Shown one piece after another: positions 1 to 31,343 of a stretch of 41,673 nt of DNA. Under the pieces are notes generated by a model, which did no database searches, was not told where the DNA came from, and saw nothing but the letters and a program-made list of their open reading frames with translations. A program made the translations under genes and the position numbers. Position 1 is the first letter of the stretch; each line of letters begins with the position of its first letter. The stretch lies in IMG/VR virus record IMGVR_UViG_3300000976_000007, positions 1 through 41,673 of that record. One strand, 5' to 3'. The DNA is from a virus.

Positions 1-49
1 AATTACAATGGAGATACAGATGTTCATTCAACAACAACCAAACATACTA
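1..49. repeat. 49-bp terminal direct repeat, identical to 41625-41673 (closure overlap of a circular or terminally redundant genome)
   Basis: Compared base by base: both copies read aattacaatggagatacagatgttcattcaacaacaaccaaacatacta. Confidence 0.95.
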
Positions 50-7531: not shown

Positions 7532-7778
7532 CCTAACAAACGAGGACTTACAGAATAATGTGAAAGCCAAGACTGAGAATTTTAGCAAGAGGTTGAATCT
7601 AGTAAAACGAACTCGTCGTAACTTAGCATATATGGGCTCAGCTTTAGAGCATGACAATGATGGAGTGCCTTTCTGTCAGAACCACGAAGAACGCTTAGTT
7701 GAGTTACTTATTCAAGCTTTTATCGAGTGCGATAGCATAGTTAAAGAAATGGAGAGCATACTAGAAAATGCCGATTAG
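7512..7778 (+). CDS. hypothetical protein (88 aa)
   Basis: AGGAG 7 nt upstream of the ATG; overlaps both neighbours by a few codons. Confidence 0.5.
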   Translation: MRWRVSSLTNEDLQNNVKAKTENFSKRLNLVKRTRRNLAYMGSALEHDNDGVPFCQNHEERLVELLIQAFIECDSIVKEMESILENAD

Positions 7779-8196
7779 CTTCACAACAAAATCAAATGGA
7801 GGGCTTGAGCGTTTAATCTCTGACTTAGAGACTAGATCGACTCAAGCCCTTAATCCTATTGGTGAAGAAACTAAGCGAGAGATTATTAGTCGAACTCGTG
7901 CTGGTCGAAACGTAGATGGTGCTGGATTTGAATCATACTCAGAGAGGTATGCTAGAAGAAAAGGCACATCAGCCAATCAAGTTAATCTTCAGCTCACAGG
8001 TGACATGCTCAACTCGATAATCTCAAGGGTTCAGCAGAATGAGCTAATAATCTCCATTCAGGGCAGTTTTGCCCGTAGCAAAGCCTCTTGGCATCAGTTT
8101 GGTGCTGGGAATAACAAGGTTCGTAGGTTTTTTGGACTAAGCGATACACAAAAAAGAAAGATCTTTCAGGATTTCACTAGATTTCTAAAAAGATAA
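7768..8196 (+). CDS. virion morphogenesis protein, Mu G / P2 S-like
   Basis: Pattern DGAGFESYSERYARRKG...LQLTGDMLNSI...WHQFGAGNNKVRRFFGLSDTQKRKI matches the family hallmark HQFGG...R.FLGLS..D as I remember it. Confidence 0.65.
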   Translation: MPISFTTKSNGGLERLISDLETRSTQALNPIGEETKREIISRTRAGRNVDGAGFESYSERYARRKGTSANQVNLQLTGDMLNSIISRVQQNELIISIQGSFARSKASWHQFGAGNNKVRRFFGLSDTQKRKIFQDFTRFLKR

Positions 8197-8274
8197 GAAG
8201 GAAACGCCTCGCATGGAACTGGTTAGTTTTATGTAAAGCAAGGGTCTTAAGTCTTATTTTTTAAGGGCAAGACG

Positions 8275-8303
8275 TCTCCGTTAATAATGTTAACAGACGG
8301 AGA
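8275..8303 (+). promoter_or_regulatory. hairpin able to sequester the scaffold-gene SD
   Basis: TCTCCGT (8275-8281) pairs with ACGGAGA (8297-8303). The right arm contains the GGAG used as SD for the ATG at 8310. Confidence 0.3.
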
Positions 8304-8309
8304 AATAGC

Positions 8310-9056
8310 ATGCCAGAAGAAAATATGACCCCATCAGGTGAAAAAGTTGATGCGGGAATCTCAGAACAAGAGCATAATGATCTCAAATCGGATTTTGCTC
8401 GATTACAAACGCTGAATGAATCATTAGTTGCTGAAAGCAATGGGTTCAAGACGCAATTAGCTACTTTTCAAGAGTCAAACGAAGCAATGAAAGCTGAACT
8501 TGAGTCTCTGAAGACAACGCAAAAGAATACTGGCGTATCGAAAGATATTCAGAAAGCTGTAACAGCGAGAGAGGAAGAGCTTCGGGGCGAACTCGGTGCC
8601 ACAATAGACGAAGCTCATTCTAAAGTCTCTCAGCTCGAACAGCAACTCAAAGAATATCAAATAGTAGACAAGCACATGGGGGAGATACTCCCTAAGCTCG
8701 TCGATAATTCCATGATGCATGAGCTTATCAAAGATCAGATCAGGAAACGTTTTGTCCAAGACAAGAATAACCCCTCTCAGATCTTAGTGCTCGATGATAA
8801 TGGTAAGCCACTAAAATCACCTAGAAATCCAGCTTTTACTATGACTCCAGAGGAGTATTTTCAAAAGCTTGAAGTAGATTTAGCCCCTGCATTTAAACCA
8901 AAGGGTGTAACTCAAGGCTCAATGCCAAGCGGTCAAATTGCTGGCGGTTCTAGTGGTAGCGGTCAAACGCAAATAACTAGAGAACAGTATCTAAAGAATC
9001 GTGACTCATATGACAGGTCAGAAAGAGTCAAATTGGATGCTCATTTTAAACTTTAA
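8310..9056 (+). CDS. scaffolding protein candidate (248 aa)
   Basis: Lies directly upstream of the capsid gene. Long E/K/Q/L-rich coiled-coil-like sequence with no protease motif seen. Confidence 0.55.
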   Translation: MPEENMTPSGEKVDAGISEQEHNDLKSDFARLQTLNESLVAESNGFKTQLATFQESNEAMKAELESLKTTQKNTGVSKDIQKAVTAREEELRGELGATIDEAHSKVSQLEQQLKEYQIVDKHMGEILPKLVDNSMMHELIKDQIRKRFVQDKNNPSQILVLDDNGKPLKSPRNPAFTMTPEEYFQKLEVDLAPAFKPKGVTQGSMPSGQIAGGSSGSGQTQITREQYLKNRDSYDRSERVKLDAHFKL

Positions 9057-9072
9057 CAAATAGAGGGAAATT

Positions 9073-9975
9073 ATGCCTTTTAGCACAGAATACCAGAATA
9101 CGGTTCAGCCAGCACAAGTTGTCGTTGATAATGCGTCTGAGAATCTTGTTCCAAATAGCGTTTGGCTTCAGCACGTTTTGCGTGAAATGATGCCTAGCGG
9201 AACACAAACTAAAGAAATACCAAAGAAAGGTGAATTGGGGAGAATCGTTCTACCTGAAAACACTAAATATACTTATGGTGCTTACTCAGAATACACAGAG
9301 ACTTCAACTCTTCTTAATGCAATTAAGTCAGTTGTTATTTCTCGTATTACTAAAGAGCAAGAGAAGTTTGGTCGTAGACCAGTATTCTCAACTATCGGTA
9401 TGGAGCAAGGAAAGGCTCTTGGTGTTGGAATGGAAGAGGACATCGCAACACTAGTTGCAGGTGCTACTTCATCTTTAACTGCTGCTGGAACTGGAGCAAC
9501 AATCCTAGATCTTATGGCTTGTGCTTTAGACGTTCAGATTTCAACAAACGGTCACGCCAACACTGGTAGAGACTTGGTTGCAGTAATGCACCCAAAAGCT
9601 GCTTTTGAATTAGGAGTTATTGATACACTTAACGGTGGAACGAACAACTTGACTGCAATGGGTGGAAATCCAATGTCGAGCATTCCAAACGTATTTGAAA
9701 AGATGGGTGCTTCTATGCCTACAAACGGCAGAGTTACATCTGTTGGTGGTATTCAAATCTACACTACAAACGTAATTGATGATGATGGAACAAACTTCAG
9801 AAATGCTATTTTTGATCCATCAAGAGCATTCGTTGGTATGTGGGATGATAGCGTTGATGTAATGACTCAAATTGAAATTGAGTATTTCAGAAACAGATTA
9901 GCTAGTTGTCACTTCAGTGACTTTGAGATCCACTTTCCAGAGGCTATTTGCCGACTAGAAAGTCCAGTTCTTTAA
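9073..9975 (+). CDS. major capsid protein (300 aa)
   Basis: Position after the scaffold, GAGGG SD, capsid-typical size, and a strong terminator immediately downstream. Confidence 0.75.
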   Translation: MPFSTEYQNTVQPAQVVVDNASENLVPNSVWLQHVLREMMPSGTQTKEIPKKGELGRIVLPENTKYTYGAYSEYTETSTLLNAIKSVVISRITKEQEKFGRRPVFSTIGMEQGKALGVGMEEDIATLVAGATSSLTAAGTGATILDLMACALDVQISTNGHANTGRDLVAVMHPKAAFELGVIDTLNGGTNNLTAMGGNPMSSIPNVFEKMGASMPTNGRVTSVGGIQIYTTNVIDDDGTNFRNAIFDPSRAFVGMWDDSVDVMTQIEIEYFRNRLASCHFSDFEIHFPEAICRLESPVL

Positions 9976-9988
9976 TAGCTGACTAATT

Positions 9989-10020
9989 AGGGAGGGGCAT
10001 ACGCCTCTCCTAATTTAATA
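9989..10020 (+). terminator. rho-independent terminator after the capsid gene
   Basis: AGGGAGGGGC (9989-9998), loop ATAC, GCCTCTCCT (10003-10011) giving a 9-bp stem with two G-U pairs, then an AATTTAATA tail. Confidence 0.55.
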
Positions 10021-10045
10021 AAATAATATATCGGGGAAACCTAAA

Positions 10046-10606
10046 ATGAGCCTAAACGAAAACGTTGTTGTAATTAGAGAAAAAAGGAAAGAATTGCTTA
10101 AAAAGGTCGATGAGATCAGAGCTTTAAGAAAGCAAAGAAGAATTAATACACCATGTATTTACTTTGCCACTGTTCTTCAGATTCCTAGAACTAAAGAAGT
10201 TCCAAATCCACCTAAAGAAGCAAGCATTCAAACATTTAATGTTAAGGGCGGAAATATACAGCCTAGAGTTGTAACAAACATGCTTAGACGTAGACAGATG
10301 CCAATTGCATATGACTTGCCAACATCAGAGCAAGCTAGGGAATTTGCAAATAAGACAGCAGAGCAATCTCAAGACGGAGATATGCTTAAAGGTGAAATTG
10401 CTTCTTATTTAGCTGGAGAAAACCCATACGATAAGCTGAAGAGAGAATTAGATAGGAGTATAAGAATGACTCTTACTGATTGGGAGAATGAAGATTTAAA
10501 AGAAAAGGTTAGTGAGTTACAGAAGCGAGCTGATAAAGAAGATAAAAAGCCAATCAAGAAAGGAGGCACTAATGCCAAAGACAAAAAAGAACAAAGCGGA
10601 AGCTAA
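10046..10606 (+). CDS. hypothetical charged protein (186 aa)
   Basis: Preceded by GGGGAAACCTAA; in the ORF track. Confidence 0.6.
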   Translation: MSLNENVVVIREKRKELLKKVDEIRALRKQRRINTPCIYFATVLQIPRTKEVPNPPKEASIQTFNVKGGNIQPRVVTNMLRRRQMPIAYDLPTSEQAREFANKTAEQSQDGDMLKGEIASYLAGENPYDKLKRELDRSIRMTLTDWENEDLKEKVSELQKRADKEDKKPIKKGGTNAKDKKEQSGS

Positions 10607-10862
10607 AGAAGAGGCTGAAGCGGTAGCTAAAGTTGAAATAGCAGAAGACACTCCTGAAGCGAAAGAGCCTGAAACGGTTCAAGAACTAAAGCAGGAGATT
10701 GCTGAATCTAATGAAGAGTCTAAGTCAGAGAGTAAAATGACAACTCGTCATCCTGCTCTTGATTTAGTTAAGAAGCCTACTGGTTTTAAGGATTCAGTAG
10801 CTAAGAAGATGAAGAGAGTAAAAGTAAAAACGGAAGTAAAAGTAAATAAGGAGATAAAGTAG
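10572..10862 (+). CDS. Lys/Glu-rich protein (96 aa)
   Basis: AAGGAGG 5-6 nt upstream of the internal ATG at 10572. The track start at 10512 has no SD. Confidence 0.55.
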   Translation: MPKTKKNKAEAKEEAEAVAKVEIAEDTPEAKEPETVQELKQEIAESNEESKSESKMTTRHPALDLVKKPTGFKDSVAKKMKRVKVKTEVKVNKEIK

Positions 10863-11006
10863 ATGCTTTGGTATTGCGCAAACGCAACATTATTTAGTGC
10901 TATATGCACAGCTAATCAAGCTGTAATTGTAACACATCGCACCAAAAAGACGCAGATAAGAACTGCCCTTGATGGATTATTAGAACCAACATTAGATGAG
11001 GACTAG
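10863..11006 (+). CDS. small protein (47 aa, below ORF-track cutoff)
   Basis: AAGGAG 9 nt upstream. Translation MLWYCANATLFSAICTANQAVIVTHRTKKTQIRTALDGLLEPTLDED. Confidence 0.45.
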   Translation: MLWYCANATLFSAICTANQAVIVTHRTKKTQIRTALDGLLEPTLDED

Positions 11007-11009
11007 ACA

Positions 11010-11195
11010 ATGGCAGTAGATTACACTGGTTTCGTTACAGCTTTAGCGGCTACAGCGAAAATTAAATCAAATATTGCAAGAGCTTTTAGTGATCCAGCAC
11101 CTTTAGGTTATGGAGCAACACATAGAGTTCCTAATAAAGTAAACAAAAAAGTAGCTTTATTAGATTACAGAATCAAAGAAACTACTGAGGACTAG
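11010..11195 (+). CDS. hypothetical protein (61 aa)
   Basis: GAGGA 7 nt upstream; in the ORF track. Confidence 0.55.
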   Translation: MAVDYTGFVTALAATAKIKSNIARAFSDPAPLGYGATHRVPNKVNKKVALLDYRIKETTED

Positions 11196-11198
11196 ACC

Positions 11199-11429
11199 TT
11201 GAGTAAGTTTGATACACGAGTCGCTCAAAGAGAGACTACGAACAAGAAAACTGAGGTGCAGAAAGAGGCTTTAGCTAAGCCTCGCTCTCAGTCTGAAAAG
11301 ACCGCAATGGCTAGAAGCCAGAAAGACCATTTAATTGGTAAACTTCGAAAACAGGGAATGTCATCAGATAAAGCGGAGAAGATGGCACGCAACGCTGTTG
11401 AGCGATGGGATAAGACAATCAGGAAATAA
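11199..11429 (+). CDS. hypothetical basic protein (76 aa)
   Basis: TTG start preceded by the same GAGGACTAGAC element as the previous gene. Confidence 0.5.
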   Translation: MSKFDTRVAQRETTNKKTEVQKEALAKPRSQSEKTAMARSQKDHLIGKLRKQGMSSDKAEKMARNAVERWDKTIRK

Positions 11430-11431
11430 TC

Positions 11432-12073
11432 ATGAGTGATAGAATTACGAGAAGAGGAGAGTTGATTTTAAGGCACACAAAGTTAGATGCTTTGACAGCT
11501 CCAGCAGTAGCAAATGGAGCAGCACAAATAGCGGCAGCAACAGGCGCAGGAGCAATGATGCCAGCAGTGCCATTTGCACAAGAGAGAATCATTTATAGAG
11601 GAATCGATGATACTACTGGAGACTTTCTTTTTGTAAGAGAAATCTTTGATGAGAATACTGGAGCAGTGACTTATGAATATTCGAATGTTGCAAACTTCTC
11701 TACGCTAGTAACTCCAGCCTCAACTGTCAGTCCTGTAAATGTTGCAGGAACAACTAAGCTTAATTTACTTGAGGGAGATGAAGAGGTCTTATCAGTAGAT
11801 GACTCAGGAACAGTTGCCCTAACAGTTCCAGCATCAGCAATTGGAGCTTTGGTTCAAGTAGAGATTTTAAGTGGTGATGGATGCGTAAGATTATACGCAG
11901 ATGGACAAACACCAACTGATACGGACGGTATAAAGGCTACTCACTTGGCACAGATATCTTTAGGTATTTCACCAGTAGCTAATGGTGATTCAATGGAGCT
12001 AGGAAACTTCTTAGCTATAGCAGAGACAGGAACAACAGCGACTATTAGAGTCGAGTATTACGAAGAGGCATAA
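11432..12073 (+). CDS. hypothetical structural-module protein (213 aa)
   Basis: ORF track. Ala/Thr/Gly/Val-rich, and the stop overlaps the start of the next gene. Confidence 0.6.
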   Translation: MSDRITRRGELILRHTKLDALTAPAVANGAAQIAAATGAGAMMPAVPFAQERIIYRGIDDTTGDFLFVREIFDENTGAVTYEYSNVANFSTLVTPASTVSPVNVAGTTKLNLLEGDEEVLSVDDSGTVALTVPASAIGALVQVEILSGDGCVRLYADGQTPTDTDGIKATHLAQISLGISPVANGDSMELGNFLAIAETGTTATIRVEYYEEA

Positions 12074-15000
12074 TGAAATTCTTATTTAGACTATTTTTAG
12101 TATTAATATTTGCGACTACAGCTAATGCTCAAGTCGTTTTTAACAATGGCGGTGGTGGTGGAAGCACTAACTTAAACCTCGCTACTCTTACAAACACTAG
12201 ACTAGGTGAGTTCTTTTACGCCGCTTCTGGAAAGACTGAGCAGGGATTATTGCCTGTTGTGTCGGGAACAGTAATAAATGGAGCGATTGATTATCCTCTT
12301 TGGTCTGCGATGTATCCTAACTTTGTAGTTGGGAATGATATTGTTTTTCCAACTAATGTAGATGGAATGTTCTTGAGAAACGTAGGTGGCAATGCAGGTG
12401 CTGAGGGTGCTTTACAAGCAGACGGCACAGCAGTAAATGGCTTATCTGGAACAGTTGCTAGAACAGCAAACAACCACATAGCAACAGAGGTTGACGGTGG
12501 AGGCGGTAATAATGTTCGATTTAATAACACAACTAGAAACGTGGTTTTTAGCTCTACAGATCCAGAGACTAGACCAGTAAACAGAGCTTATCAGCTTTAT
12601 ACAGTAGTAGATGGATATACTCAGATTGGAAACCTAATTGGGGCTCCTGTTAATCCTGATACTAACTGCGAAGTTCTTGAATTTGTTGCAGGTGTTGCAA
12701 TTACATCGACAAACGGCGAAACGATTAATCCAGGTGATTATTACATTAGCTGTCCACAGTCAGGCACTACTTGGATGGGTGGAGCAGGAGCGAACTATGC
12801 AAGTGCAAACTTAGCTTCAAGCGGTGCAAGGACTCACTCTTGGGGGCATAATCAGATTGAAAACTTTACTGATGCTGGTCATGAAAGAAATTACGACAGT
12901 GCTTTTTTCGCAGGTCTTGGAATGGATATTTCTGAGACTGCCTTTAATAGAGACACAGTTATAAATGGTAATCCTGGTATATCTTCAGATGAGAATTTAA
13001 GTGCTAGTGATTACGATAGAAACTTTACAAACGGTGCTGACCAGTCAACACTCGACCATAGCGGTAGCGGTTTTAAAGTCGAGGCTCAAAATGTAAATAC
13101 ATCAACTCAAGGAACATCAGTAATAGACTTAACGACAATTCCAGCTTCGGGAGCTAAACTTGAATGGAGTTCTCAGGTTTTACCTGATGGCACTACTGTT
13201 GGGATTGAGGCTAAGGATGTTGGAAACTCCTCAGAGCTATTTATCAAGACAGGTGATGTAGGCAGAGGAACGGCTACCGTAGGTCAAGTCTTAGGGCTTT
13301 CTGCTGCGACAGGTGAGGTAGAATTTGTTGATGTTGCCTCTAGCTTAGTATTCCAAGAGTTCGCAGGAATAAGCTCCCCAATTCTTGACGGTGTTTCTAA
13401 TACTGTTTGGACTCACACAGATGCTACAGCAGGAACGATATTGCTAGACTCCACCCCTTATGATGTAGGAGCGAGAATATTCGTAACTCAGGGCGATGCG
13501 AACGGAACTCTTGCGGTTATAACACCTCAGTTGTTTCTATCAGACAATGAGCTTAATGCAGTCACAGGCAGTATCACAATTGAGCAGAATGAGTCTTTAT
13601 CTCTTATTAAAGACCCAGCAGGAAACTGGATAGTAACAAGCCAGCCTAGACCTCAGAGTGTAGATGTGGGCGATGTTGTTGCTCAACTAAGAGATTGGAC
13701 TCAAGAGAGTGCTATACCATCATTGGGGTTAGCTCCAATCCCAGTGCCAGGAAGCTACAAGGCAGTAAATAGTGTGTCTTTGGAAGACCTTTCTACTACA
13801 TGGCAGTACTATTCTCTTTTTAGCAATATCCCAACTACGACTAACCAAGTTGTTAGGGTTAAGTGGGTTTTACAACCTGGAAGCACCACAAGTTGGGCTT
13901 TAAGGCTTGGCTCTCCGAATACTGATATTACCTTTGATAAGGATACTGGCTTAGCAGACATTGTAGGAGCAGGTATCACAGTATTGTCACAAGAAGTAAG
14001 TAATGGGGTTGCAGAGACTTATATTGAAATGCCTGCAAGTGCTGGTTTTGCTTTCTGGCAGATATACCCTGCTTTTGGAGTAGTTGGTGCAGGGACGCCA
14101 TCAGCTACCCAAACAGGCACAGTTCAGATTCTCGAGTTAGACCTTAACGCTGACTTCTCAGCAGGAGGAACTGCAAGAGATGGAGTTCTTACGGAAGTAT
14201 TGAGTGGCTCAAGCACTGGGTTTGATGTAGCAGAAATAAAAGATGTTACTTATATTCTAGGTGGTGGAAATCAGACTATTCCAGATGCTATTAATCCTAA
14301 CTTCGCAGGACATCTTTTAGTTAAGTTTATCTATGGGGGAACAACGCCTGTAACAATAACGCTTCCTAGTAATGTTGCTCAACATAATGATGGGGTAAAT
14401 GACTTTACTACTGTGACAGTAGGACAAGGAACTACTTCTTATTTAGTTACAACTAATAACTCTTGGAATTGGGATTTGATTTCTAGTCAGCCAGAGCCAC
14501 AAGCAGGGAAGACTTATAATAGTCCTTTTCCAAATATTGCTTTAACTATCGGAGCTACGAACTTTCCAAGCGGACAAACTGTTCAGGGATTCTTAGAAGA
14601 AGACATTCATAATACGATGGTATTTAAGACTGATGGAACTGAGACATTTCAAGCTCTACTTACAGCAGTAGGTGGAACTGGTGTTGTTACATACTTAGAG
14701 CTAAATGATTTATCTGCTCAAACGATAATTCCGACAGACCCAGTGCCAGCAGGTATTTATTCGATAAACAGAATCGGTGGAGTCAATGCGACTATTAAGC
14801 AGATTTCTTTATATAAGAATATCAATGCTGAGTTGTCTGGAAGTGGTGGAACATTGAAGTTGAACCAGGTTCATCCAGTTAATGTGACAGCTAGTCCTGT
14901 AACGGTAGTAATGCCAGCAGGTGCAGAGATTGGAGATACGGTCACAGTTATTGACTCTAGATTTAATGCTTTGACTAACAACATTACAGTCGACTTAACA

Positions 15001-15114
15001 ACTAATGGGTATGTTCTTTACGGAACTTCTCAAGACCTCATCATTGATACAAATGGAGAGACAGTTGTTCTTACTTACACTAGCCCAGGTGCGGGCTGGA
15101 CAGCAGGGAATTAA
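12073..15114 (+). CDS. large fibre-like protein (1013 aa) with N-terminal Sec-type signal peptide and tail-collar-like domain
   Basis: MKFLFRLFLVLIFATTANA then QVVFNNGGGGG. Tail-collar-like marks are LGEFFYAASG, DYPLWSAMYP, FPTNVDGMFLRNVGG and ETRPVNRAYQLYTVV. Overall Thr/Gly/Asn/Val-rich. Confidence 0.65.
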   Translation: MKFLFRLFLVLIFATTANAQVVFNNGGGGGSTNLNLATLTNTRLGEFFYAASGKTEQGLLPVVSGTVINGAIDYPLWSAMYPNFVVGNDIVFPTNVDGMFLRNVGGNAGAEGALQADGTAVNGLSGTVARTANNHIATEVDGGGGNNVRFNNTTRNVVFSSTDPETRPVNRAYQLYTVVDGYTQIGNLIGAPVNPDTNCEVLEFVAGVAITSTNGETINPGDYYISCPQSGTTWMGGAGANYASANLASSGARTHSWGHNQIENFTDAGHERNYDSAFFAGLGMDISETAFNRDTVINGNPGISSDENLSASDYDRNFTNGADQSTLDHSGSGFKVEAQNVNTSTQGTSVIDLTTIPASGAKLEWSSQVLPDGTTVGIEAKDVGNSSELFIKTGDVGRGTATVGQVLGLSAATGEVEFVDVASSLVFQEFAGISSPILDGVSNTVWTHTDATAGTILLDSTPYDVGARIFVTQGDANGTLAVITPQLFLSDNELNAVTGSITIEQNESLSLIKDPAGNWIVTSQPRPQSVDVGDVVAQLRDWTQESAIPSLGLAPIPVPGSYKAVNSVSLEDLSTTWQYYSLFSNIPTTTNQVVRVKWVLQPGSTTSWALRLGSPNTDITFDKDTGLADIVGAGITVLSQEVSNGVAETYIEMPASAGFAFWQIYPAFGVVGAGTPSATQTGTVQILELDLNADFSAGGTARDGVLTEVLSGSSTGFDVAEIKDVTYILGGGNQTIPDAINPNFAGHLLVKFIYGGTTPVTITLPSNVAQHNDGVNDFTTVTVGQGTTSYLVTTNNSWNWDLISSQPEPQAGKTYNSPFPNIALTIGATNFPSGQTVQGFLEEDIHNTMVFKTDGTETFQALLTAVGGTGVVTYLELNDLSAQTIIPTDPVPAGIYSINRIGGVNATIKQISLYKNINAELSGSGGTLKLNQVHPVNVTASPVTVVMPAGAEIGDTVTVIDSRFNALTNNITVDLTTNGYVLYGTSQDLIIDTNGETVVLTYTSPGAGWTAGN

Positions 15115-15116
15115 CA

Positions 15117-16598
15117 ATGCATAGATTATTTGCTTTACTATTTTGGATACTATCTTGTGCAGCACTTGCTTATTCGCAAGTAACTTCTGCGGAGCTTGAA
15201 AGCGACAAGGGTTTTGGGAATATCGCAATCGATGTTCTTGAAGTATCGAGTCCTACTTTCACATTTCCACAGGGATACACGGGAGATAAAGACGATGTTG
15301 CTATTATAGGTGATGGATTAGCACCTGTAATTGTTAGCGGTCTTGGTGGTTCTGATGTTTCAGTTGAGCCAAACGAGAAAGCTCTCTTTCATAAATCAAA
15401 CGGAACTTGGTATGGAAGAACCTTGTCTGGTGCTGGTGGAGGTAGTGCAAACACTGCTGGAAACGGAATGACTCTTAATGGCTCTGTTATGGAGCTTGGT
15501 GGAGCTTCGCCAGCAGGTGCTCCATTAACTAGAGACACTTTCTTTGACGGTGTTGGTGGTTTGTATAGTTTTAGAGTTCTTAACGTAGATGGGTTCTCTG
15601 CTACAGCTAATGATGCGATGACATTTGAAACAAGTCAAACATACGCCGTTGATGCTGATGGAGATATCAACTTAAATGCAGTTGGTGACGGCAGACTAAT
15701 TGTTCAAAATGGCAAGATAACTATTAGATCAGATACTAACGATGTTAGCCTACAGGGTAATAATGTTACGACAGTTGGTGTTTTAACGGGAGGAACGAGC
15801 GAACTAAGACTAAGAACTAGAAATATTGCTGCTGGATTTACAAACGTAGGTCAATACCTAAGACTTAGTAATGTAAACGGACAGGTTGAATTTGATGATT
15901 TGCCATCTAGTGTCACTCAGAATTTCGCTAGAGACGATCTGTCTCTAACAGCTAACAGAACGCACACTCAAGGCTCTTTTGACTACAAACAGGACATCGG
16001 AACTGGACGCTGGGATATCACTAGAGGTGGGACTAATATATTTACTAGAGGAACTTTTAGCACTCAGGTTCGTAATGACGATAACGGTGCTAGGCTTTCT
16101 TTGCTTGATTCGGGTGATGAGGCACAACTAACTACTGATAGCGGAACTGTAAGAGTTGGAACAACTACACCAGTTGGTAAAGTTGAAATAGCAACACCAA
16201 ATGTTGTAACGGGTGGTGCTTCAGTAGGACAGTTCTTAGCACTAAGTGCAGCTTCAGGAGAGGTTGAGTATGTCGATGCACCAACAGATAACAGCTTAAT
16301 TGGCGATAATGCTTTTTCTAACTACATGGATATCGGAGAAATGCGAATCCAGTGGGGACGTGTTACAGCGACATCTACGATAGAGTCTGTCACCTATCCA
16401 GCTGTTTTTGATGGAGTTGCAGGTTCATTTACTGCAACATCAACTACAAATACCTCTAACTATGTGAACGAGAATACACTTGCTCAAACCTCAGCAGGAA
16501 CTCAAGTTTCTGGTTATGATATTAACGGAAATTCAGCTGTAGTTAATTTTAGCTGGATGGCTATAGGAACTAAGCCACCAACCGCAGTAATACCATAG
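15117..16598 (+). CDS. fibre-like protein (493 aa) with N-terminal signal peptide
   Basis: MHRLFALLFWILSCAALAYS then QVTSAE. Carries two copies of the VGQxLxLSxxxGxVE(F/Y)xD motif also present in 12073-15114. Confidence 0.6.
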   Translation: MHRLFALLFWILSCAALAYSQVTSAELESDKGFGNIAIDVLEVSSPTFTFPQGYTGDKDDVAIIGDGLAPVIVSGLGGSDVSVEPNEKALFHKSNGTWYGRTLSGAGGGSANTAGNGMTLNGSVMELGGASPAGAPLTRDTFFDGVGGLYSFRVLNVDGFSATANDAMTFETSQTYAVDADGDINLNAVGDGRLIVQNGKITIRSDTNDVSLQGNNVTTVGVLTGGTSELRLRTRNIAAGFTNVGQYLRLSNVNGQVEFDDLPSSVTQNFARDDLSLTANRTHTQGSFDYKQDIGTGRWDITRGGTNIFTRGTFSTQVRNDDNGARLSLLDSGDEAQLTTDSGTVRVGTTTPVGKVEIATPNVVTGGASVGQFLALSAASGEVEYVDAPTDNSLIGDNAFSNYMDIGEMRIQWGRVTATSTIESVTYPAVFDGVAGSFTATSTTNTSNYVNENTLAQTSAGTQVSGYDINGNSAVVNFSWMAIGTKPPTAVIP

Positions 16599-16606
16599 GG
16601 AGATAG

Positions 16607-16840
16607 ATGTTAGACTGGATAAAACTAACTGTCATGCTCGCAATACAGATTGTCATTGTGTGTGCTTTTGCTTTTACGATGAGGTCTCAAGTTTCAAGCA
16701 ATAAAGAAGACATTAAAGATCATGAGCTAAGAATTCGTTATATAGAATCTGCGGTTATGGATTTTAAGCACTTAAAGGATGATGTCTCTGATATTAAGAA
16801 AGCAGTTAGTGACTATACCAAACAAGGATGTAGTAAATGA
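16607..16840 (+). CDS. single-pass membrane protein with coiled-coil tail (77 aa)
   Basis: Hydrophobic LTVMLAIQIVIVCAFAFTM followed by a charged helical region. GGGAG SD upstream. Confidence 0.55.
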   Translation: MLDWIKLTVMLAIQIVIVCAFAFTMRSQVSSNKEDIKDHELRIRYIESAVMDFKHLKDDVSDIKKAVSDYTKQGCSK

Positions 16841-17643
16841 AAGCTCTATTTGGAAAAGCATTTAGCTATGACTTTTATGCACTCAGTGCTGATGAAGTTA
16901 GCAATATAGAGCTACCTGCTAGTCCTACGAGTATTTATCTATTTGAAGAAAGGCCAACTGATGACGAGGCTCGTAATAACACATCAGGAACAGCAATACA
17001 GACAGTTAGTGCTTGGACAACTACAGCAGACGGATACGGTAAGAGAATTAGCTTTAGTCGAGTTGACGATCCAGATCCAACAATAAGAAATGAGGGTGGT
17101 TCTTATTACTATAGCAAAAAGATTGGTTATTACGACGACTCTGATAGCCTGGAAAGAGAGTATTGGATTGCTATAAATAGCCCTCTTGAGGTGGGAGACG
17201 TGGCTCAACATGCTCCTATTTTAAGATCAATTCGTCTTTGCCGAGTTTGGGGTCAGGAAAGCAAAGTCAATGTGACTGTTGCTGATTTAGTCCGTCTGGA
17301 GAGCCACCTTACAATTCATTGTGATTATCTTGGGGACTTAACTCAATACATCGACACGGCAGAATATCGAGTAAGAATGAAGCTTGTAGGCTGTAATGTT
17401 AGATGGGGCGATATCGTAGACCCAGAGCAGTTAAACCTATGCATAGCTGAGAGGGCACTCTATGACTTCCTTAGTGGTCAATCACGAGGGGCTGGAGACG
17501 TAGCTGAGAATCTATCTATGAAGCATAAAGAAGAATATAAGGACTGCCTTAAACAGCTCTATATTGAGCTAGACAAAGACAGAGATGGAAAGTCTGAGGG
17601 GAAAAGGAATGCAAGTAATCCAACCCTGGAGTTTTTTAGATGA
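16837..17643 (+). CDS. hypothetical protein, possible head-tail connector or completion protein (268 aa)
   Basis: ATGA overlap with the upstream stop; lies upstream of the major tail gene. Function is guessed from position only. Confidence 0.4.
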   Translation: MKALFGKAFSYDFYALSADEVSNIELPASPTSIYLFEERPTDDEARNNTSGTAIQTVSAWTTTADGYGKRISFSRVDDPDPTIRNEGGSYYYSKKIGYYDDSDSLEREYWIAINSPLEVGDVAQHAPILRSIRLCRVWGQESKVNVTVADLVRLESHLTIHCDYLGDLTQYIDTAEYRVRMKLVGCNVRWGDIVDPEQLNLCIAERALYDFLSGQSRGAGDVAENLSMKHKEEYKDCLKQLYIELDKDRDGKSEGKRNASNPTLEFFR

Positions 17644-18125
17644 CATTCTTTTCTTCACAGATATGTGACGCTTTTCAAAAAACAGTCTTTTCTGATGCTG
17701 ATATTCTAGCAATTACACCAAATATCTATATTGGACGTGATATGGCTGGAGATCAGGTTCACACAAAAGACTTGCGAGATATCGTTCATCATAAGATAAT
17801 CAACTTTGTTCAGGTATTGTGCCAGCGATACCGAGACGATGAAGAGCTTGGCAGATGCGGAGCTTATAAATATAGAGTGCTTATTTCTTACTACCGAGAA
17901 GAATACAAAGACGAAGCAACTCAATCAATAATTCAACATTTTTTTGAACTACTAGATGACAAGATCTATGAACTTATGGGTCGTCACTGGTGTTCTACGG
18001 TTGATTCTTTTAATGGGGAAGTTAACTTTCCTCAGATATTTCGAGCAGGTCAGATTGATTCACGTCCTATTTTAGTAGGGCAATATTCATACTTCGGCGA
18101 CAGAGGAGGAGCTGGAGTTGGTTAA
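17640..18125 (+). CDS. hypothetical protein, possible tail completion protein (161 aa)
   Basis: ATGA overlap with the upstream stop; lies directly upstream of the major tail protein. Confidence 0.4.
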   Translation: MTFFSSQICDAFQKTVFSDADILAITPNIYIGRDMAGDQVHTKDLRDIVHHKIINFVQVLCQRYRDDEELGRCGAYKYRVLISYYREEYKDEATQSIIQHFFELLDDKIYELMGRHWCSTVDSFNGEVNFPQIFRAGQIDSRPILVGQYSYFGDRGGAGVG

Positions 18126-18142
18126 ATCAATAGGAGACTCTT

Positions 18143-19303
18143 ATGGCAGGTCAAGGACTTGGAAACGCATTAGATGGTGCTTCGAGTAATGCAGGTTATG
18201 TAAATAGCTCGTGTGCCGCACCAACCCCAGATATATTCGGAACAGCTTTGGATATGTCTACTTTCGATGACGCTAAAATCTGTGCTCAGATAACAGACAA
18301 CCTTTCAGCTTCTGAATTAGAAGAGGATGTGGTTGGTTGTGGAGCATCAGCAGGATTTTCTAGCTCTTGTCGATTAGGACAGAGAGAATATCGTGTAGGA
18401 CTAGCAGGTGACTTAGGATATGAAAATGGATTTGATAGAATCCTTGCTCAATTCTTTGGTCAAGTATCAGCACCCGCTGAGCAGAATGCTGGAGAAAACG
18501 ACTGTCTTCATACTTTCACATTCGCCCAGATAGCAAATGAGCATTTTGGAACATTCGCTTATGAGACATCAAGAACAGATGTAATTGAGCTACCAAGTGT
18601 TTATACTGAGGGCATCAGCATAAACATGAGTTCTATTAATAATTATGTTCGTTGGGGAGCTAATCTAGTTTCTAATGATTTTAACTGCGTAACAGTTGCA
18701 AGAGCTACTGCAAACACTGACTTGACTGCGGATGTAGTTAATCAGAATGCACAGCTTCAAGCCTTAACTGTTGGTGACAGAGAGCTTGTATTCCCAGAGT
18801 GTAATCACACACTAAGATTAAAAGAGATTTTAGATGATGGAACTGACACAGCATTAGTTGCTGCCGATCAGTTTAACATCACATCTTTTGAGTTAGAAAT
18901 GAATACTCCACTAGAGACAATCGATGAGATGACTGGTGGTGTATGTAATGGTGCAACTCAATCAGATAGAAGAAATGGAACTCTTACTCTTGGAGTAAAG
19001 GAACATTCTGATAATGGACTAACTTATTGTGCTTGGAGAAATGGCACTACCTTTATGGCCGAACTTGAATGGACAGGTAAGCAGATTGGAACAGGAGCAC
19101 TTAAAACTTTTAGAATTAAACTCCCTAAACTTTGTCTTGCAGGATCTCCTGGATACAACATTACAAACGCTGGGAAAAACCCTTTTAACTTAGTTTTTAG
19201 AATCCTAGAAAGTGAGAATATCCTTCCACTAACAGGACAAACTACACAAGCACCAGAGATAGACATTATCAATGGTAGAAAAATAGATTACTTACAGACT
19301 TAA
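18143..19303 (+). CDS. major tail protein candidate (386 aa)
   Basis: AGGAG SD. It is the single large gene immediately before the chaperone pair and tape measure, which is the siphovirus gene order. Confidence 0.6.
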   Translation: MAGQGLGNALDGASSNAGYVNSSCAAPTPDIFGTALDMSTFDDAKICAQITDNLSASELEEDVVGCGASAGFSSSCRLGQREYRVGLAGDLGYENGFDRILAQFFGQVSAPAEQNAGENDCLHTFTFAQIANEHFGTFAYETSRTDVIELPSVYTEGISINMSSINNYVRWGANLVSNDFNCVTVARATANTDLTADVVNQNAQLQALTVGDRELVFPECNHTLRLKEILDDGTDTALVAADQFNITSFELEMNTPLETIDEMTGGVCNGATQSDRRNGTLTLGVKEHSDNGLTYCAWRNGTTFMAELEWTGKQIGTGALKTFRIKLPKLCLAGSPGYNITNAGKNPFNLVFRILESENILPLTGQTTQAPEIDIINGRKIDYLQT

Positions 19304-20104: not shown

Positions 20105-23100
20105 ATGCCTGATAGAGAAATTTTTGACATTGTTGTTAGAACTAATACTCAGGAAGCAGAGAATGCACTGAGATCTCTTAGAACTGCCTTTGAAGAACTG
20201 AGAACAACGGCTCGCCGATCTGGTAACGATATAGAGCGAAGCTTTACAGAATCTTTAGTTAGAACAGCTAGAGCATCTAGCCGACGTTTCTCCACAGAAA
20301 TAAACAGAAGTTTTAGAACCGTTGGAACAAGTTCATCACAGAGCTTTGTTAGAGAGTTTCAAAAAACAGCAACTTCGGGTGTTCAAGATGCCAGTAAAGT
20401 TATTTCTAGTCGATTAGGTCAATCGCTGAGACAGGATATTACTCCACAGCTCGACGAAGTTAGAAATAAAATCCAAGATGCCCTTGGTGGATCTGGTGGT
20501 GGCGGAGCTGGAGGTGGTGGAACTAGTCCATTTTCTAGGCTATCAGCATCGATAATTACTCTTAATCAAGGATTAGAATTAACGCAAAGACTTATTGGCG
20601 GAGCAACAAGAGTAGCTAGAGGCTTTGTTGATGCACTACAAGAAGCCGCTCGAGTTGAGGGTCTTGAAAGATCATTTTCTACTCTTCAGGAGAGCATTGG
20701 TGCAGATGCTACAGCATCAATCAATGGACTTAGAGAAGCTACAAGAGGCTTAGTATCTGACTTAGATTTATTCCAAAGCGCAAACCAAGCTGTATTACTT
20801 GGAGTAGATGATGGCTCTGGAGCATTTCAGCAGTTAACAGCAGATGCTATTAAACTTGGTCAAGCAATGGGAGTCACAGCCAAGGACGCTGTTGATTCAC
20901 TAGTAATTGGTATTGGTCGTCAATCGCGACTGGTTTTAGATAACCTTGGTGTTGTCGTAAAGGCAGAAGAGGCTTATAAGGCTTTTGCAGATCAGCTAGG
21001 AGTAACAGTCGATCAATTAAACGATGCTGGAAAACGAGCCGCTTTTACTGAAGCCGCTTTTGAAGCCGTAAGACAAAAAGCCGCTGAATTAGCAGATGCA
21101 ACAGAGACAGCAGGTATAGCTTCACAGAGGATAATAGCAACATTTAGCAATCTACGTTCAGAGCTATTACAAAACTTATCTGCAAATGAGAATTTAACAA
21201 ACGCCCTTAGACAGTTTAATGATGTTTTAATTAATATTGATTTAGATGCATTCGCTAATGACTTAGCCGAGGTAGCAGGTGCAATAATTAACTTTGCTTC
21301 TATCGTGATAGAACAGGGTGTTTTTGCAATTAGAGAGATTACAGAAAACCTTAGAATCTTTACAAACTTTGCAGGTCAAATAAGCAATGCATTCTCGCAA
21401 ATAGACTTCTCTACTGGCTTTCGAGCAACAAGGTCATTTATAGGGGCATTAAGAGAGGTTAGTTTAGAAACTGCAATCCTAGAGGAAGCAAGTAAAAGAC
21501 AAACTAATATAGTTGCTCAGATGGCTAAGGCTACTGATGAAGCTAGAAAAACATTTACTGGAAAGGGTAGAGCTGTAAAGACAGTCTCCGATGCTTTAAC
21601 AGAATATACTGGAAATTCAGACAAAGCGACTGCAAGCACTACAAAGTTAACAGATGAGCAGAAAAAGCAAATACAAGAAACTAGAAGACTTGATGGTGCT
21701 TTTGAAAAATTAAGAGACACTGTTACATCGATAACACCTGAGTTTATAACATTAAGAGATACTGCCGTTGATTTATATGAAGAGGTCAAGCAAGGAACTT
21801 TAGATTTTGATGACTTTAGAACAGCTCTTGAGGAGATGGCTAGGGCTTCAGGGTTAACTAAGAGAGACTTAGCAAACTTACTCCCTGAGATAGTTAAGGT
21901 AGGTGAAGAATCAAACAAGGCGGAAGAGGAAGTTCAAAAATTAAAAGATGCGTTACAAGAAGATATTGATGGAAGTCTCTTTGGTGGGCTACTTGATGAT
22001 CTAACAAGTGGAGGATTTGCTGATCTGCTTGGTGGCTTAAGTGAGGGTGCTCAGGGTGCTATTCTTGGGGGACTTTCTGGTATTACCGATTCACTCGCAG
22101 GGGCACTTGGAGGCATACTTGAAGGTTCGTTTAATAGCGACTCAGCAGAAGAGCTAGGGAGAGGTATTGGTGGCTCAATTGGGAGAGCGGCAGGAGATGC
22201 TATTTTACCTGGGCTTGGGCAGTTTACGGAGCTTATTGGTGCTGAGATTGGAGAGGATATTGCTGAAATTGGGCAAAGCACCAGAGATACCCTTCAAGGC
22301 GTTGGGGCTATACTGGGTGGGTTGCCTGGATTAGTTTTAGGTGATGCTATTGGAAACTTATTTAATGATGACCCAGAACCATTTAGAGAGGCTAGGGATA
22401 ACTTTGTTGGGGCATTAAATAATGCTTTTACTGAAGCTGGCATAGAAGAAAATGATTTTGATTTTGGAGTAAATGGATTCTTTCAGATAGATGAAGATGC
22501 TTTTAATGAAATTAGAATCTCAGCAGAGGAAGCTAGGGAAGTTTTTGGTGAAGCCTTTGGAAGTAACACTTCAGTTATTGGAGATGAGTTATTTACTAAT
22601 CAGGCATCAATAGACGCATCAGGCATTGCTCCAGATTTAAGAGCACAATTTGAAGGGATAGCAACTGCATTTAGAGAGTCATTTGATTTAAGCCCAGAGC
22701 TAGAAGGATTAGCAAGTCAGCTTGGAACAGTCTTTGCATTAAATTTACAAGATGCATCAGGCTTGAATGAATTTCAGTTAGCACTACAAAGAGCTGATGT
22801 TAACGTTGAAGATCTTGGTGTCGCACTAGAAGAGGCTTTTCTTGCTGGTGATATTTCAGCAGGTGAATTTCTTAATTCACTCTCAGCAGTTGAAGACTTA
22901 GCCGCCGTTGGAATCCCAGGAGCTTTCGGTGCTGTTGATTTAGCATTTCAAAACTTCTTAGATGGAGCAACGGTTTCTGGAGATAGGGCAGTCGATGCAC
23001 TACAAGATATCGCCGCCGAAGCTGAAGATCTAGGTGCTGAAACTTTTGAAGACTTAAGGAGGGTCTTAGAAGAAAGAGGCTTTGATACTCAGCAGATAGA

Positions 23101-23401
23101 ACAATTCTTTAATACACTTCAAGAAAGAGGGATTCAAACATTAGAGCAACTAGAGAATGTTTCCGCTTTTGATGCCGCTGGAATTGTTAGCTCACTAGAG
23201 CAAACAGGCTTCGCTTTCACTGAAGTTAGTGATGATATCGAGGGTGCGATAGAAAGAATAGAAGACTTTAGAAATAATGCTGAGACAGAGATAGTCACTA
23301 GATGGAGAATTGAAACAACAGTTACTGGAGACCAAATTCCATCAGAAGTTGCAACTGCTACAGGAGTTGATGATGCAAACTTTGAGGGGATTGCTCAGTA
23401 A
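20105..23401 (+). CDS. tail tape measure protein (1098 aa)
   Basis: Longest gene in the window, follows the chaperone pair, is Ala/Leu/Gly/Glu-rich and helical, and has Gly-rich hinges (GGSGGGGAGGGG). Confidence 0.85.
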   Translation: MPDREIFDIVVRTNTQEAENALRSLRTAFEELRTTARRSGNDIERSFTESLVRTARASSRRFSTEINRSFRTVGTSSSQSFVREFQKTATSGVQDASKVISSRLGQSLRQDITPQLDEVRNKIQDALGGSGGGGAGGGGTSPFSRLSASIITLNQGLELTQRLIGGATRVARGFVDALQEAARVEGLERSFSTLQESIGADATASINGLREATRGLVSDLDLFQSANQAVLLGVDDGSGAFQQLTADAIKLGQAMGVTAKDAVDSLVIGIGRQSRLVLDNLGVVVKAEEAYKAFADQLGVTVDQLNDAGKRAAFTEAAFEAVRQKAAELADATETAGIASQRIIATFSNLRSELLQNLSANENLTNALRQFNDVLINIDLDAFANDLAEVAGAIINFASIVIEQGVFAIREITENLRIFTNFAGQISNAFSQIDFSTGFRATRSFIGALREVSLETAILEEASKRQTNIVAQMAKATDEARKTFTGKGRAVKTVSDALTEYTGNSDKATASTTKLTDEQKKQIQETRRLDGAFEKLRDTVTSITPEFITLRDTAVDLYEEVKQGTLDFDDFRTALEEMARASGLTKRDLANLLPEIVKVGEESNKAEEEVQKLKDALQEDIDGSLFGGLLDDLTSGGFADLLGGLSEGAQGAILGGLSGITDSLAGALGGILEGSFNSDSAEELGRGIGGSIGRAAGDAILPGLGQFTELIGAEIGEDIAEIGQSTRDTLQGVGAILGGLPGLVLGDAIGNLFNDDPEPFREARDNFVGALNNAFTEAGIEENDFDFGVNGFFQIDEDAFNEIRISAEEAREVFGEAFGSNTSVIGDELFTNQASIDASGIAPDLRAQFEGIATAFRESFDLSPELEGLASQLGTVFALNLQDASGLNEFQLALQRADVNVEDLGVALEEAFLAGDISAGEFLNSLSAVEDLAAVGIPGAFGAVDLAFQNFLDGATVSGDRAVDALQDIAAEAEDLGAETFEDLRRVLEERGFDTQQIEQFFNTLQERGIQTLEQLENVSAFDAAGIVSSLEQTGFAFTEVSDDIEGAIERIEDFRNNAETEIVTRWRIETTVTGDQIPSEVATATGVDDANFEGIAQ

Positions 23402-24222
23402 TGGCTTTAACAGGAATACCTCCATATGAAAGAAGATGCACCTACTTTGCTTTTCCGCACAATGGTTGCTTTCATGAAGCAAGTGATGATGGCTGTTCTT
23501 TATTACATTCTGTTTGTGGTATTAATACGGGATACAGACATCATAACTTTTTTACTGAATCTACTGGAGTAATGAGCTGGGAAGTCACATACGACTTCTT
23601 TAGTGATCCAATTGCTCCTAATTTTTTATATATAAGTCGAGTTGATCTAGAGGAAGCATTTCTTACTGGGTTATTAACTATCCGATTTAGAGGTAGTAAT
23701 GATGATGTTAACTACGTGGATATTCAAAACTTTACAGCACCATTTAATTTATCTGGTAGTCAAGAAAATGACTTTTTTGAGTGTTTTGATCCAGGGGTAG
23801 AGTATCGATATATTCGTATTCGTTTTAACTTTTCAGCTCAAACAAGAGTTTCTTTTAGCAAAATATACTTTGGAGAGCTTTTTGATATGGAGCAAGAACC
23901 ATCAGTTAGCTTAGTAGAAACAAGAGAGCAAACAGAAAGAGGGGTTTTCCAGTCAACTAGTAATATAAAGATTTACAGAAGAAACGGCAGACCAGTCTAT
24001 ACATACAGATTTGAATATAAAGGATTGTCTGATAACAAAGCTAAGCAGTTCCTAGATAAAATGATTATCTTAAATAATAGGTTTACCGTTTTGGCAGACT
24101 TAGATAACAGAGAATTATTTAATAAACATGGCGTTATTAACGGCGTTATCTCTGGAGTAGAGGTTGAGAACACGGCTAAAGATTTTAATAATCTAAGTTT
24201 TAACTTTGTGGAGATGCTATGA
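23401..24222 (+). CDS. minor tail / distal tail protein candidate (273 aa)
   Basis: TAATG overlap with the tape measure stop. Function is inferred from position only. Confidence 0.45.
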   Translation: MALTGIPPYERRCTYFAFPHNGCFHEASDDGCSLLHSVCGINTGYRHHNFFTESTGVMSWEVTYDFFSDPIAPNFLYISRVDLEEAFLTGLLTIRFRGSNDDVNYVDIQNFTAPFNLSGSQENDFFECFDPGVEYRYIRIRFNFSAQTRVSFSKIYFGELFDMEQEPSVSLVETREQTERGVFQSTSNIKIYRRNGRPVYTYRFEYKGLSDNKAKQFLDKMIILNNRFTVLADLDNRELFNKHGVINGVISGVEVENTAKDFNNLSFNFVEML

Positions 24223-27415: not shown

Positions 27416-27425
27416 GGGATGAAGA

Positions 27426-29847: not shown

Positions 29848-29853
29848 GTAGAT

Positions 29854-31342: not shown

Positions 31343-31343
31343 A

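Follow-up and report, generated by a model that had tools for sequence, protein, structure and literature searches.

Why would a tailed phage place export signals on two large fibre-like proteins and encode them in the midst of its virion genes? In the standard view, tailed-phage particles, fibres included, are built in the cytoplasm, and the phage proteins that are exported are small accessory factors. It is this view that would be challenged by virus record IMGVR_UViG_3300000976_000007 (hereafter the window, meaning the whole stretch of 41,673 bp that was analysed), one complete metagenomic contig with a siphovirus-like gene order. Between its scaffold and major capsid protein (MCP) genes and its neck and tail genes sits a cassette of three open reading frames (ORFs), namely the fibre-like ORF-A and ORF-B and the small membrane protein ORF-C, and the coordinates at which the original prediction had placed two large ORFs, of 1013 and 493 amino acids (aa), between the capsid and connector/tail blocks proved exact (Table 1). 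That prediction had left two readings, in which the proteins are either exported to the host envelope or carry hydrophobic N-termini with some structural role; the Sec-type signals have since turned out to be conserved, which favours export, although sequence alone settles neither. The conservation data make the case for a signal-bearing fibre cassette stronger than could be known at the outset. As the best explanation of its anatomy, a 213-aa protein, ORF-A, ORF-B and ORF-C would form a four-gene cassette fixed in this phage lineage, and my preferred reading, held tentatively at a probability of roughly 0.4, is that ORF-A and ORF-B are Sec-exported fibre-type binding proteins acting in the envelope of the infected cell, a non-virion role included.

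The argument starts at the N-termini, where signal peptides were called by a rule-based reading of the sequence (a basic n-region, a hydrophobic h-region of 7-15 residues, a polar c-region and the -3/-1 rule). ORF-A begins with a basic n-region (MKFLFR), a hydrophobic h-region (LFLVLIFATT) and a c-region ending in ANA/Q, where the slash marks the predicted cleavage site; ORF-B reads MHR, LFALLFWILSCAAL and AYS/Q, and the textbook Sec-type architecture first ascribed to both, with its basic n-region, hydrophobic core and small-x-small motif, can be read directly in both sequences. Both have the small residues at -3 and -1 of a type-I signal, and neither has a lipobox, the +1 residue being Gln and not Cys, unlike in lipoproteins of the Llp/Cor type. 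The Gly5 linker said to follow the first signal is present (NNGGGGGS). No ATG, GTG or TTG lies between Met1 and the first conserved residues in either ORF-A or ORF-B, and therefore the hydrophobic N-termini must be translated and are not mis-called starts; that they are genuine is borne out further by their retention in a syntenic relative and by the Gln at +1.

The signal is present on every close homologue that reaches its N-terminus. That of ORF-A is conserved in P0008, which is 62% identical to the ORF-A N-terminus (MKLFFRLFLALTLFVTSAQA/Q, running ...TSAQA/QVVFNNGGG), and in P0087 (...PVEA/QIIFGGGGGGS), and the mature start of ORF-A recurs as QVVFNNGGGAGTS in P0008 and as QIIFGGGGGGS in the first fibre of the syntenic contig L025. 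P0007, a homologue of ORF-B, carries MRNICLFIFSLFVVNAYA/Q, ending in ...NAYA/Q, and keeps the mature motif QVT[ST]AEL[EQ]SD in common with ORF-B, while P0002 and P0005 read ...PALG/Q and ...DAVA/Q. When 1.84 billion representative proteins were searched exhaustively with HMMER, 283 matches were returned. Among the relatives examined, 30 N-termini are signal-like, and Gln occupies +1 in 25 of these, counted as a -3/-1-compatible site followed by Gln (23 by script, plus P0034 and P0083 by eye), against a Gln background of 3.2%. The same is true of all three signal proteins of the window, the third being a 192-aa protein (Table 1) that has no family match and no homologue in L025; it lies outside the cassette and may reflect the same export theme. 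The known counterpart is the Q-rule, by which Gln follows at least 48% of signal peptidase I (SPase-I) sites in more than 99% of Bacteroidetes species, and the exposed N-terminal Gln is turned into pyroglutamate by glutaminyl cyclase (PMC5837995). If the helix served structure only, there would be little reason for its n-region to stay basic, for -3 and -1 to stay small or for Gln to persist at +1, and so this combination is the strongest evidence for actual cleavage. I infer that the signals are genuine Sec/SPase-I signals cut at the outer face of the inner membrane, and I regard export and cleavage, taken alone, as quite probable.

How the genes are packed is equally telling. The 213-aa gene, whose product has no signal peptide and no match in Pfam, PHROGs or the PDB, overlaps the ORF-A start as TAATG; 2 nt separate ORF-A from ORF-B and 8 nt separate ORF-B from ORF-C, and the ORF-C stop overlaps the start of the next gene as ATGA, a layout that points to translational coupling on both sides of the cassette. 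A consensus scan set against shuffled sequence gave 8 promoter-like sites in the cassette where 18.2 were expected and 3 terminator-like sites where 4.2 were expected, hence no excess of either. The moron framing that had been entertained for these genes sits badly with this packing and coupling and with the conserved position in L025, and a classical moron was accordingly rejected: there is no intergenic room, no promoter or terminator excess, coupling on both sides, and a position conserved in a relative with ~45% core identity. The membrane and coiled-coil protein originally described as packed against its neighbours at the end of the cassette is real, and it has a counterpart in L025. Among PHROGs, ORF-C gives weak holin/antiholin matches (E 2e-3 to 7e-3) and its L025 copy matches phrog_19043, of unknown function, at E 9e-6; the candidate lysis genes lie away from it (Table 1).

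Table 1. Features of the window, with amino acid identity to the counterpart in contig L025 where one was aligned; a slash in a sequence marks the predicted cleavage site.
Feature	Position	Strand	Remarks	Identity to L025
Large terminase (TerL)	1210-2604			46%
Portal	2609-4351			36%
Third signal-peptide protein, 192 aa	4536-5114	+	MRLILIFLVILTTSPAVA/Q (...SPAVA/Q); 6 Cys; after portal gene	
Scaffold	8310-9056			
MCP	9073-9975			49%
213-aa protein	11432..12073	+	directly upstream of ORF-A; without signal peptide	45% (L025 9345-10001)
ORF-A, modular fibre-like preprotein, 1013 aa	12073-15114	+		
ORF-A type-I signal peptide, aa 1-19	12073..12129	+	MKFLFRLFLVLIFATTANA; predicted cleavage before Gln20	
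Predicted mature ORF-A N-terminus	12130..12165	+	QVVFNNGGGGGS; short strand, then Gly5 linker	
Divergent tail-collar-like module, ORF-A aa ~35-190	12175..12642	+	>200 protein clusters	
Shaft module, ORF-A aa 374-431	13192..13365	+	47% identical to ORF-B aa 218-271, E 5e-7	
C-terminal beta-sandwich, ORF-A aa ~925-1010	14845..15102	+	similar to CBA120 TSP4 XD1 and T4 gp9	
ORF-B, fibre-like preprotein, 493 aa	15117-16598	+		
ORF-B type-I signal peptide, aa 1-20	15117..15176	+	MHRLFALLFWILSCAALAYS; predicted cleavage before Gln21	
Gp53-like C-terminal fibre tip, ORF-B aa 411-484	16347..16568	+	PF21882	
ORF-C, 77 aa	16607-16840	+	single-pass membrane (transmembrane segment ~aa 6-25), C-terminal coiled coil	49% blastp, 53% MAFFT alignment (L025 14749-15042)
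Genes between ORF-C and tape measure region	16837-19303		precede tape measure gene	
Tape measure gene	20105-23401		closes tail-gene block	44%
Seven proteins after tape measure	23401-30498		distal-tail by position only	
Candidate lysis genes	~30500-31739		basis is position and transmembrane content only	

The comparison that carries most of the conservation argument is with two ENA contigs reached through P0087, L025 and L026, which are true relatives of the window phage. Besides the identities in Table 1, the window and L025 have in common a 268-aa protein (29%), a 161-aa protein (37%) and a 386-aa tail protein (45%), and at the corresponding place, bounded by the same flanking genes, L025 carries two consecutive fibre genes with Q-rule signals, one of 562 aa (MYRFIFLSLIAVFLALPVEA/Q) and one of 1006 aa (MIKYISKALLLTILISSFAQA/Q) with a BclA_C domain; the YYEEA-stop/ATG junction that leads from the 213-aa gene into the first fibre gene is conserved as well. 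With slot and flanking genes both conserved, the cassette is therefore not a sporadic moron. The L025 fibres resemble ORF-A and ORF-B at their ends only, fibre 1 having in common with ORF-A the signal, the Q-[VI]-[VI]-F-Gly-rich N-terminus and the C-terminal module (36%), and fibre 2 having in common with ORF-B the C-terminal tip (29%), and such conserved ends with exchanged middles would be evolution of the kind expected of receptor-binding proteins. A protein search with the 213-aa protein gave a single match, the fragment P0156 (69% identical), which together with P0008 may represent fragments of the contig of one third relative; scans of viral_contigs and metagenome_contigs with the same protein yielded no further syntenic locus.

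The fibre-like nature of both proteins, as first proposed, is supported by module homologies. ORF-A runs from a collar-like module through a shaft segment and a middle region with few relatives (aa ~500-700) to a C-terminal beta-sandwich. The tail-collar hallmarks that had been noticed at its N-terminal end stood only in part: Pfam Collar (PF07484) was matched neither by ORF-A at E<=0.1 nor by 29 module sequences at E<=1, and the module profile found nothing among PDB sequences, while an AlphaFold model built from the 29-sequence alignment (pLDDT 67) matched tail-collar/MdpB proteins in BFVD by Foldseek (E 4e-5 to 1e-3, probability ~1), though with low TM-scores of 0.31-0.43; its best PDB matches, the T4 gp37 tip, T4 gp12 and the cyanophage A-1(L) fibre, were not significant (E>=0.12 for gp12 and gp37). 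At the other end, ORF-A aa 934-1010 align with residues 99-173 of 7rfv_A (CBA120 TSP4) at E 3.8e-6; XD1 comprises TSP4 residues 80-178, and its fold is common to T4 gp9 and gp10 and to modules with which the secreted proteases StcE and CpaA bind glycans (PMC8825819). A by-eye impression of several XD1-like repeats in ORF-A and ORF-B was set aside, a hidden Markov model detecting the C-terminal copy only. The ORF-B tip matches PF21882 at 27.4 bits (gathering cut-off 24.9; E 4.9e-6) and 4mtm_A at E 0.009, and it resembles the C-termini of P0002 and of L025 fibre 2. P0002 is a single signal-bearing protein of 1004 aa with ORF-A-like segments, a collar and an ORF-B-like tip, and because it combines both, ORF-A and ORF-B look like one fibre split in two. 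Among 50,697 phages, tblastn with ORF-A and ORF-B gave one short match, of the C-terminal module to the hypothetical protein gp61 of Pelagibacter phage HTVC023P.

Mature ORF-A contains just two Cys, Cys199 and Cys227 (window 12667-12753), 28 residues apart. P0008 retains the two, and the corresponding segment of P0002 has neither; such paired presence or absence fits a disulfide made outside the cytoplasm and is suggestive, and even Cys counts are weakly commoner in signal-bearing relatives (Fisher p = 0.06). A disulfide signature was nevertheless dropped, given this p value and the two close Cys pairs that are also found in a signal-less protein of the window (28423-29847). Neither ORF-A nor ORF-B is enriched in D-[ST]-[AILVMT], the O-glycosylation motif of Bacteroidota.

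Signals are found on module-sharing fibres of some other phages and are missing from others. The signal-less relatives have an ordinary fibre N-terminus, beginning MAQ... or MTQ... in L018-L020 and L023, and their genes follow tape measure or baseplate genes (L018-L020, and P0004 in L013/L014, where the fibre gene comes after the tape measure gene and three others); since the N-terminus is ordinary wherever the signal is absent, the signal replaces the virion-proximal end. The suspicion that homologues would prove to be ordinary fibres is thus not borne out within this lineage, and it does hold for these signal-less module-sharers in the tail-fibre slots of other phages. Signal-bearing fibres recur in at least three other uncultured phage groups: directly after the portal gene in L015 (P0002); in the lambda lom/stf slot of L017 (P0005), after genes for a distal tail protein, a tail protein, a J-like central fibre and a minor tail protein; and in L016, where a Q-rule fibre of 1422 aa is accompanied by a Q-rule protein of 663 aa and by a lipoprotein of 538 aa that resembles hydrolases and tail fibres, which suggests that one phage may export several fibre-like proteins. 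Between L017 and the window, the tape measure proteins are 30% identical. The signal-bearing variant is thus recurrent, in a slot that varies between phage groups and is fixed in the lineage of the window. In L016, a viral contig of 39% GC, the exported fibre-like genes (7628-18614) lie downstream of a DarB-like 1890-aa protein.

Bacterial chromosomes hold homologues too. Scanned with the collar alignment, a set holding a single genome for each GTDB species yielded 10 loci; Bacteroidota account for 8 of these (Ancylomarina, Arenibacter, Winogradskyella, Maribacter, Cellulophaga and further Flavobacteriaceae), and the genes lie in ordinary chromosomal surroundings. The encoded proteins, of 380-1250 aa, have Q-rule signals (MK...SFA/QFGIGT...) and a collar at the extreme C-terminus (...ETRPxNRAYQLYTIVDTY-stop), their collar modules being 45-54% identical, and they also contain collagen and phage-fibre repeats. 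At two of the loci, L006 and L010, a membrane protein of the PorP/SprF family, which belongs to the type IX secretion system (T9SS), is encoded two genes downstream (TIGR03519, E 5e-79 and 1e-69); the middle gene in L010 (5805-11044) encodes a protein with a T9SS type-B sorting domain (TIGR04131), and that in L006 (7350-11494) a 662-aa signal-peptide protein with weak CglD/MtsD-like matches. These three-gene units appear to represent a class of T9SS-linked surface fibres not yet described, and, judged by genome context, exporting fibres of this family is established usage in cells. Their Q-rule signals and collar module are those of ORF-A; unlike there, the collar is N-terminal in ORF-A, and no T9SS genes lie in the window.

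Two of the chromosomal homologues also weakly match the N-domain of the Bdellovibrio MAT proteins (NF053851), which are signal-bearing, surface-displayed relatives of phage fibres (PMC10769870). Like ORF-A and ORF-B, MAT fibres are related to phage tail fibres and have a signal peptide and mosaic, swappable tips, and they are exported and trimeric, as ORF-A and ORF-B are presumed to be; they differ in being encoded by cells and in having a conserved, beta-rich N-domain of ~130 aa after the signal, where ORF-A and ORF-B are phage-encoded and lie in a virion operon (PMC10769870). No NCBIfam model matched ORF-A or ORF-B at E<=0.01, hence neither the MAT N-domain nor a T9SS sorting domain, and both MAT membership and T9SS cargo (there being no type A or B C-terminal sorting domain) were rejected.

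With this evidence in hand, the envelope reading can be spelled out. Late in infection, ORF-A and ORF-B would be translated from the structural operon, coupled to their neighbours, and carried by their type-I signals across the inner membrane as Sec preproteins. Signal peptidase I would cut after A-x-A/S, exposing an N-terminal Gln that in a Q-rule host would be cyclised to pyroglutamate, and the proteins would fold in the cell envelope, not in the cytoplasm where head and tail are built. Presumably trimeric and equipped with receptor-binding-type modules, their middles probably swapped by recombination with a general pool of marine phage fibre modules, they could attach to glycans in the envelope or on the surface of the infected cell and of its debris, ORF-C perhaps tethering them or helping in their assembly, and by occupying these ligands they might exclude other phages or spare the progeny re-adsorption to debris. 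In that role they would be fibre-shaped equivalents of the exported phage proteins that block receptors or exclude other phages. As the slot differs between groups (post-portal in L015, head-neck here, after J in L017), an accessory cassette suits the data better than a fixed structural site.

Several observations weigh against this. The cassette genes lie among virion genes, to which they are translationally coupled, and they have been conserved in the way a structural module would be; apart from ORF-A and ORF-B, no protein of the genome has recognisable fibre or receptor-binding domains; and P0005 occupies a side-tail-fibre-like slot. The post-tape-measure proteins are without any detectable homology, and no module is common to them and to ORF-A/ORF-B, so that the idea of ORF-A and ORF-B as copies of tail receptor-binding proteins of this phage was rejected and, with no tip in common, masking of the phage's own receptor is weakened as a role. 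Both lack a T9SS C-terminal domain and any other signal that would take them across an outer membrane, and therefore in a diderm host both would be periplasmic until lysis. Lastly, the host phylum is puzzling, since Q-rule signals coexist with genes rich in Shine-Dalgarno motifs.

On this last point, AGGAG-type motifs precede 33 of 53 window genes against a background of 15%, and the corresponding counts are 4/65 in Flavobacterium phage 11b, 9/22 in L025, 7/18 in L017 and 1/13 in L016. Shine-Dalgarno use amounts to 0.1-3% in Bacteroidota classes, 32% in Ignavibacteria and 51% in Calditrichae (PMC10783764), and Ignavibacterium album has a Q-value of 77% (PMC5837995). A host among Bacteroidia or Flavobacteriia is contradicted by this usage; the host is probably, with low confidence, a member of the Fibrobacteres-Chlorobi-Bacteroidetes (FCB) group outside the classic Bacteroidota, for example among Ignavibacteriota.

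What else could the cassette be? ORF-A and ORF-B may be virion fibres that mature outside the cytoplasm, being exported, processed and kept in the periplasm, perhaps held there by ORF-C, until holin and endolysin mix the compartments at lysis and the fibres dock on the particle, most likely at its head or neck to judge from the gene order. The conserved position in the virion operon and the translational coupling would both follow, as would the conserved ends with middles swapped as in receptor-binding proteins, the modules typical of virion fibres (XD1, Gp53-like tip and collar), the lack of other recognisable fibre proteins in the genome and the location of P0005 in the side-fibre slot after a J-like central fibre; the conserved mature Q-V/I-V/I-F with its Gly linker could serve as a docking strand, and a pyroglutamate N-terminus would aid survival in seawater, as far as PMC10653852 bears on this. 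Joining after lysis seems inefficient, however, the gene position varies between phage groups, and no recognisable virion-binding domain is present. I know of no precedent for the extracytoplasmic addition of parts in tailed phages, literature searches for virion fibres with cleaved signal peptides returned nothing relevant, and I consider this explanation unlikely; if true, one step in the morphogenesis of a tailed phage would take place outside the cytoplasm, and this step would be kept within a lineage and would recur across several marine phage groups that are not related to each other.

Export itself would fall away if ORF-A and ORF-B were ordinary cytoplasmic virion fibres whose hydrophobic N-terminus forms a structural element inside the particle, such as a helix for trimerisation or anchoring, which is improbable. 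A place in the structural operon would suit such fibres, and a single-sequence AlphaFold model of ORF-B (pLDDT 35) does predict a helix at residues 2-19, but this would leave unexplained why the n-region is basic, why a helix-breaking Pro or Thr precedes the site, why -3 and -1 are small and why Gln stands almost universally at +1; moreover, the same signal occurs on the non-fibre 192-aa protein of the same phage and on the chromosomal T9SS-linked homologues, which are clearly exported, and the relatives without a signal have unrelated N-termini. Equally doubtful is a role as surface adhesins, in which a host outer-membrane pathway would display the fibres after Sec export, and altered adhesion or aggregation would release the progeny beside new hosts. 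Chromosomal homologues in operons of fibre, T9SS type-B cargo and PorP/SprF genes are in keeping with it, as are the surface display of Bdellovibrio MAT fibres (PMC10769870) and the binding-type modules at both ends of ORF-A, but neither ORF-A nor ORF-B contains a T9SS C-terminal domain, an autotransporter domain or a lipobox, the window holds no partner cargo or PorP gene, and expression from a late operon would leave little time before lysis.

The two proteins are best filed where known kinds are joined, combining phage fibre or receptor-binding proteins with exported fibre adhesins and exported phage accessory proteins. Among the latter, lambda Lom, T5 Llp and Cor of T1 and phi80 are exported by a signal peptide or lipobox, are encoded in or beside tail-fibre genes and act in the envelope, Llp and Cor by blocking the receptor; they are small outer-membrane proteins or lipoproteins and not of a fibre type of 500-1000 aa, and they are mostly morons or early genes, whereas ORF-A and ORF-B have no lipobox and belong to a conserved, translationally coupled cassette. 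Among virion fibres, the tip of gp53 of Acinetobacter phage AP22 (4MTM) and XD1 of CBA120 TSP4 (7RFV) resemble modules of ORF-B and ORF-A in homology or fold, and the T4 gp12 collar may do so, but these fibres lack a signal peptide and are put together in the cytoplasm, and XD1 lies near the N-terminal anchor in TSP4 and at the C-terminus in ORF-A. Q-rule signal peptides on phage genes have been reported before, in the 'Nixviridae' phages of P. gingivalis, where the function of the genes is unknown and the signals are seen as an adaptation to the host Sec system (PMC10367356); there too, predicted SPase-I cleavage exposes Gln, but those proteins are not described as fibre-like, and ORF-A and ORF-B are of fibre type and lie inside the virion module.

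What sets the cassette apart is that large, modular fibres of receptor-binding type, with Sec signals adapted to the lineage, are fixed in a virion operon. If the envelope role is right, they would constitute a new class of envelope-acting phage factor, related to MAT and T9SS-linked fibres. A single pool of fibre modules is common to virion fibres, exported phage fibres and bacterial surface fibres, which matters for predicting phage hosts from fibre genes.

The remainder of the genome offers further context. A 49-bp direct repeat at the contig ends (window 1-49 and 41625-41673) indicates a circularly closed, complete genome of ~41.6 kb, in which the + strand carries nearly all genes and in which replication genes and RecT are also found. 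Searched at the DNA level, window 11000-18000 matched none of 50,697 phage records, and the terminase is merely 25-27% identical to those of cultured phages. The 474-aa post-tape-measure protein at 28423-29847, which has no signal and a Gly6 stretch, contains a repeat in two copies with closely spaced Cys pairs (LCPAVQACET... and LCPVVKNCET..., with CPAVQAC and CPVVKNC) and has no homologue in Pfam, PHROGs or the PDB; by position only, it is a candidate for the tail receptor-binding protein. Lipobox-like N-termini occur on three ORFs, at 202-426 (..SSTGC), ~35172-35528 (..MVSGC) and 39750-40268 (..LVVAC), which are probably phage lipoproteins, and none of them adjoins the cassette.

Two observations concern the relatives. 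The P0004 gene (L013 10001-13477, also in L014) has 40 in-frame TGA codons, which the database product reads as Trp; at collar positions 579, 586, 626, 627 and 633, TGA stands where the family has an invariant Gly, which implies that TGA encodes Gly (genetic code 25), the 78-kb L013 contig probably belonging to a phage of Gracilibacteria/Absconditabacteria. In the cultured Flavobacterium phage 11b (L002), an 88-aa lipoprotein gene (12286-12552; MKTTIKLAAVLSLLLLTSC...) lies between the major capsid and head-tail adaptor genes, in the same general slot as the cassette.

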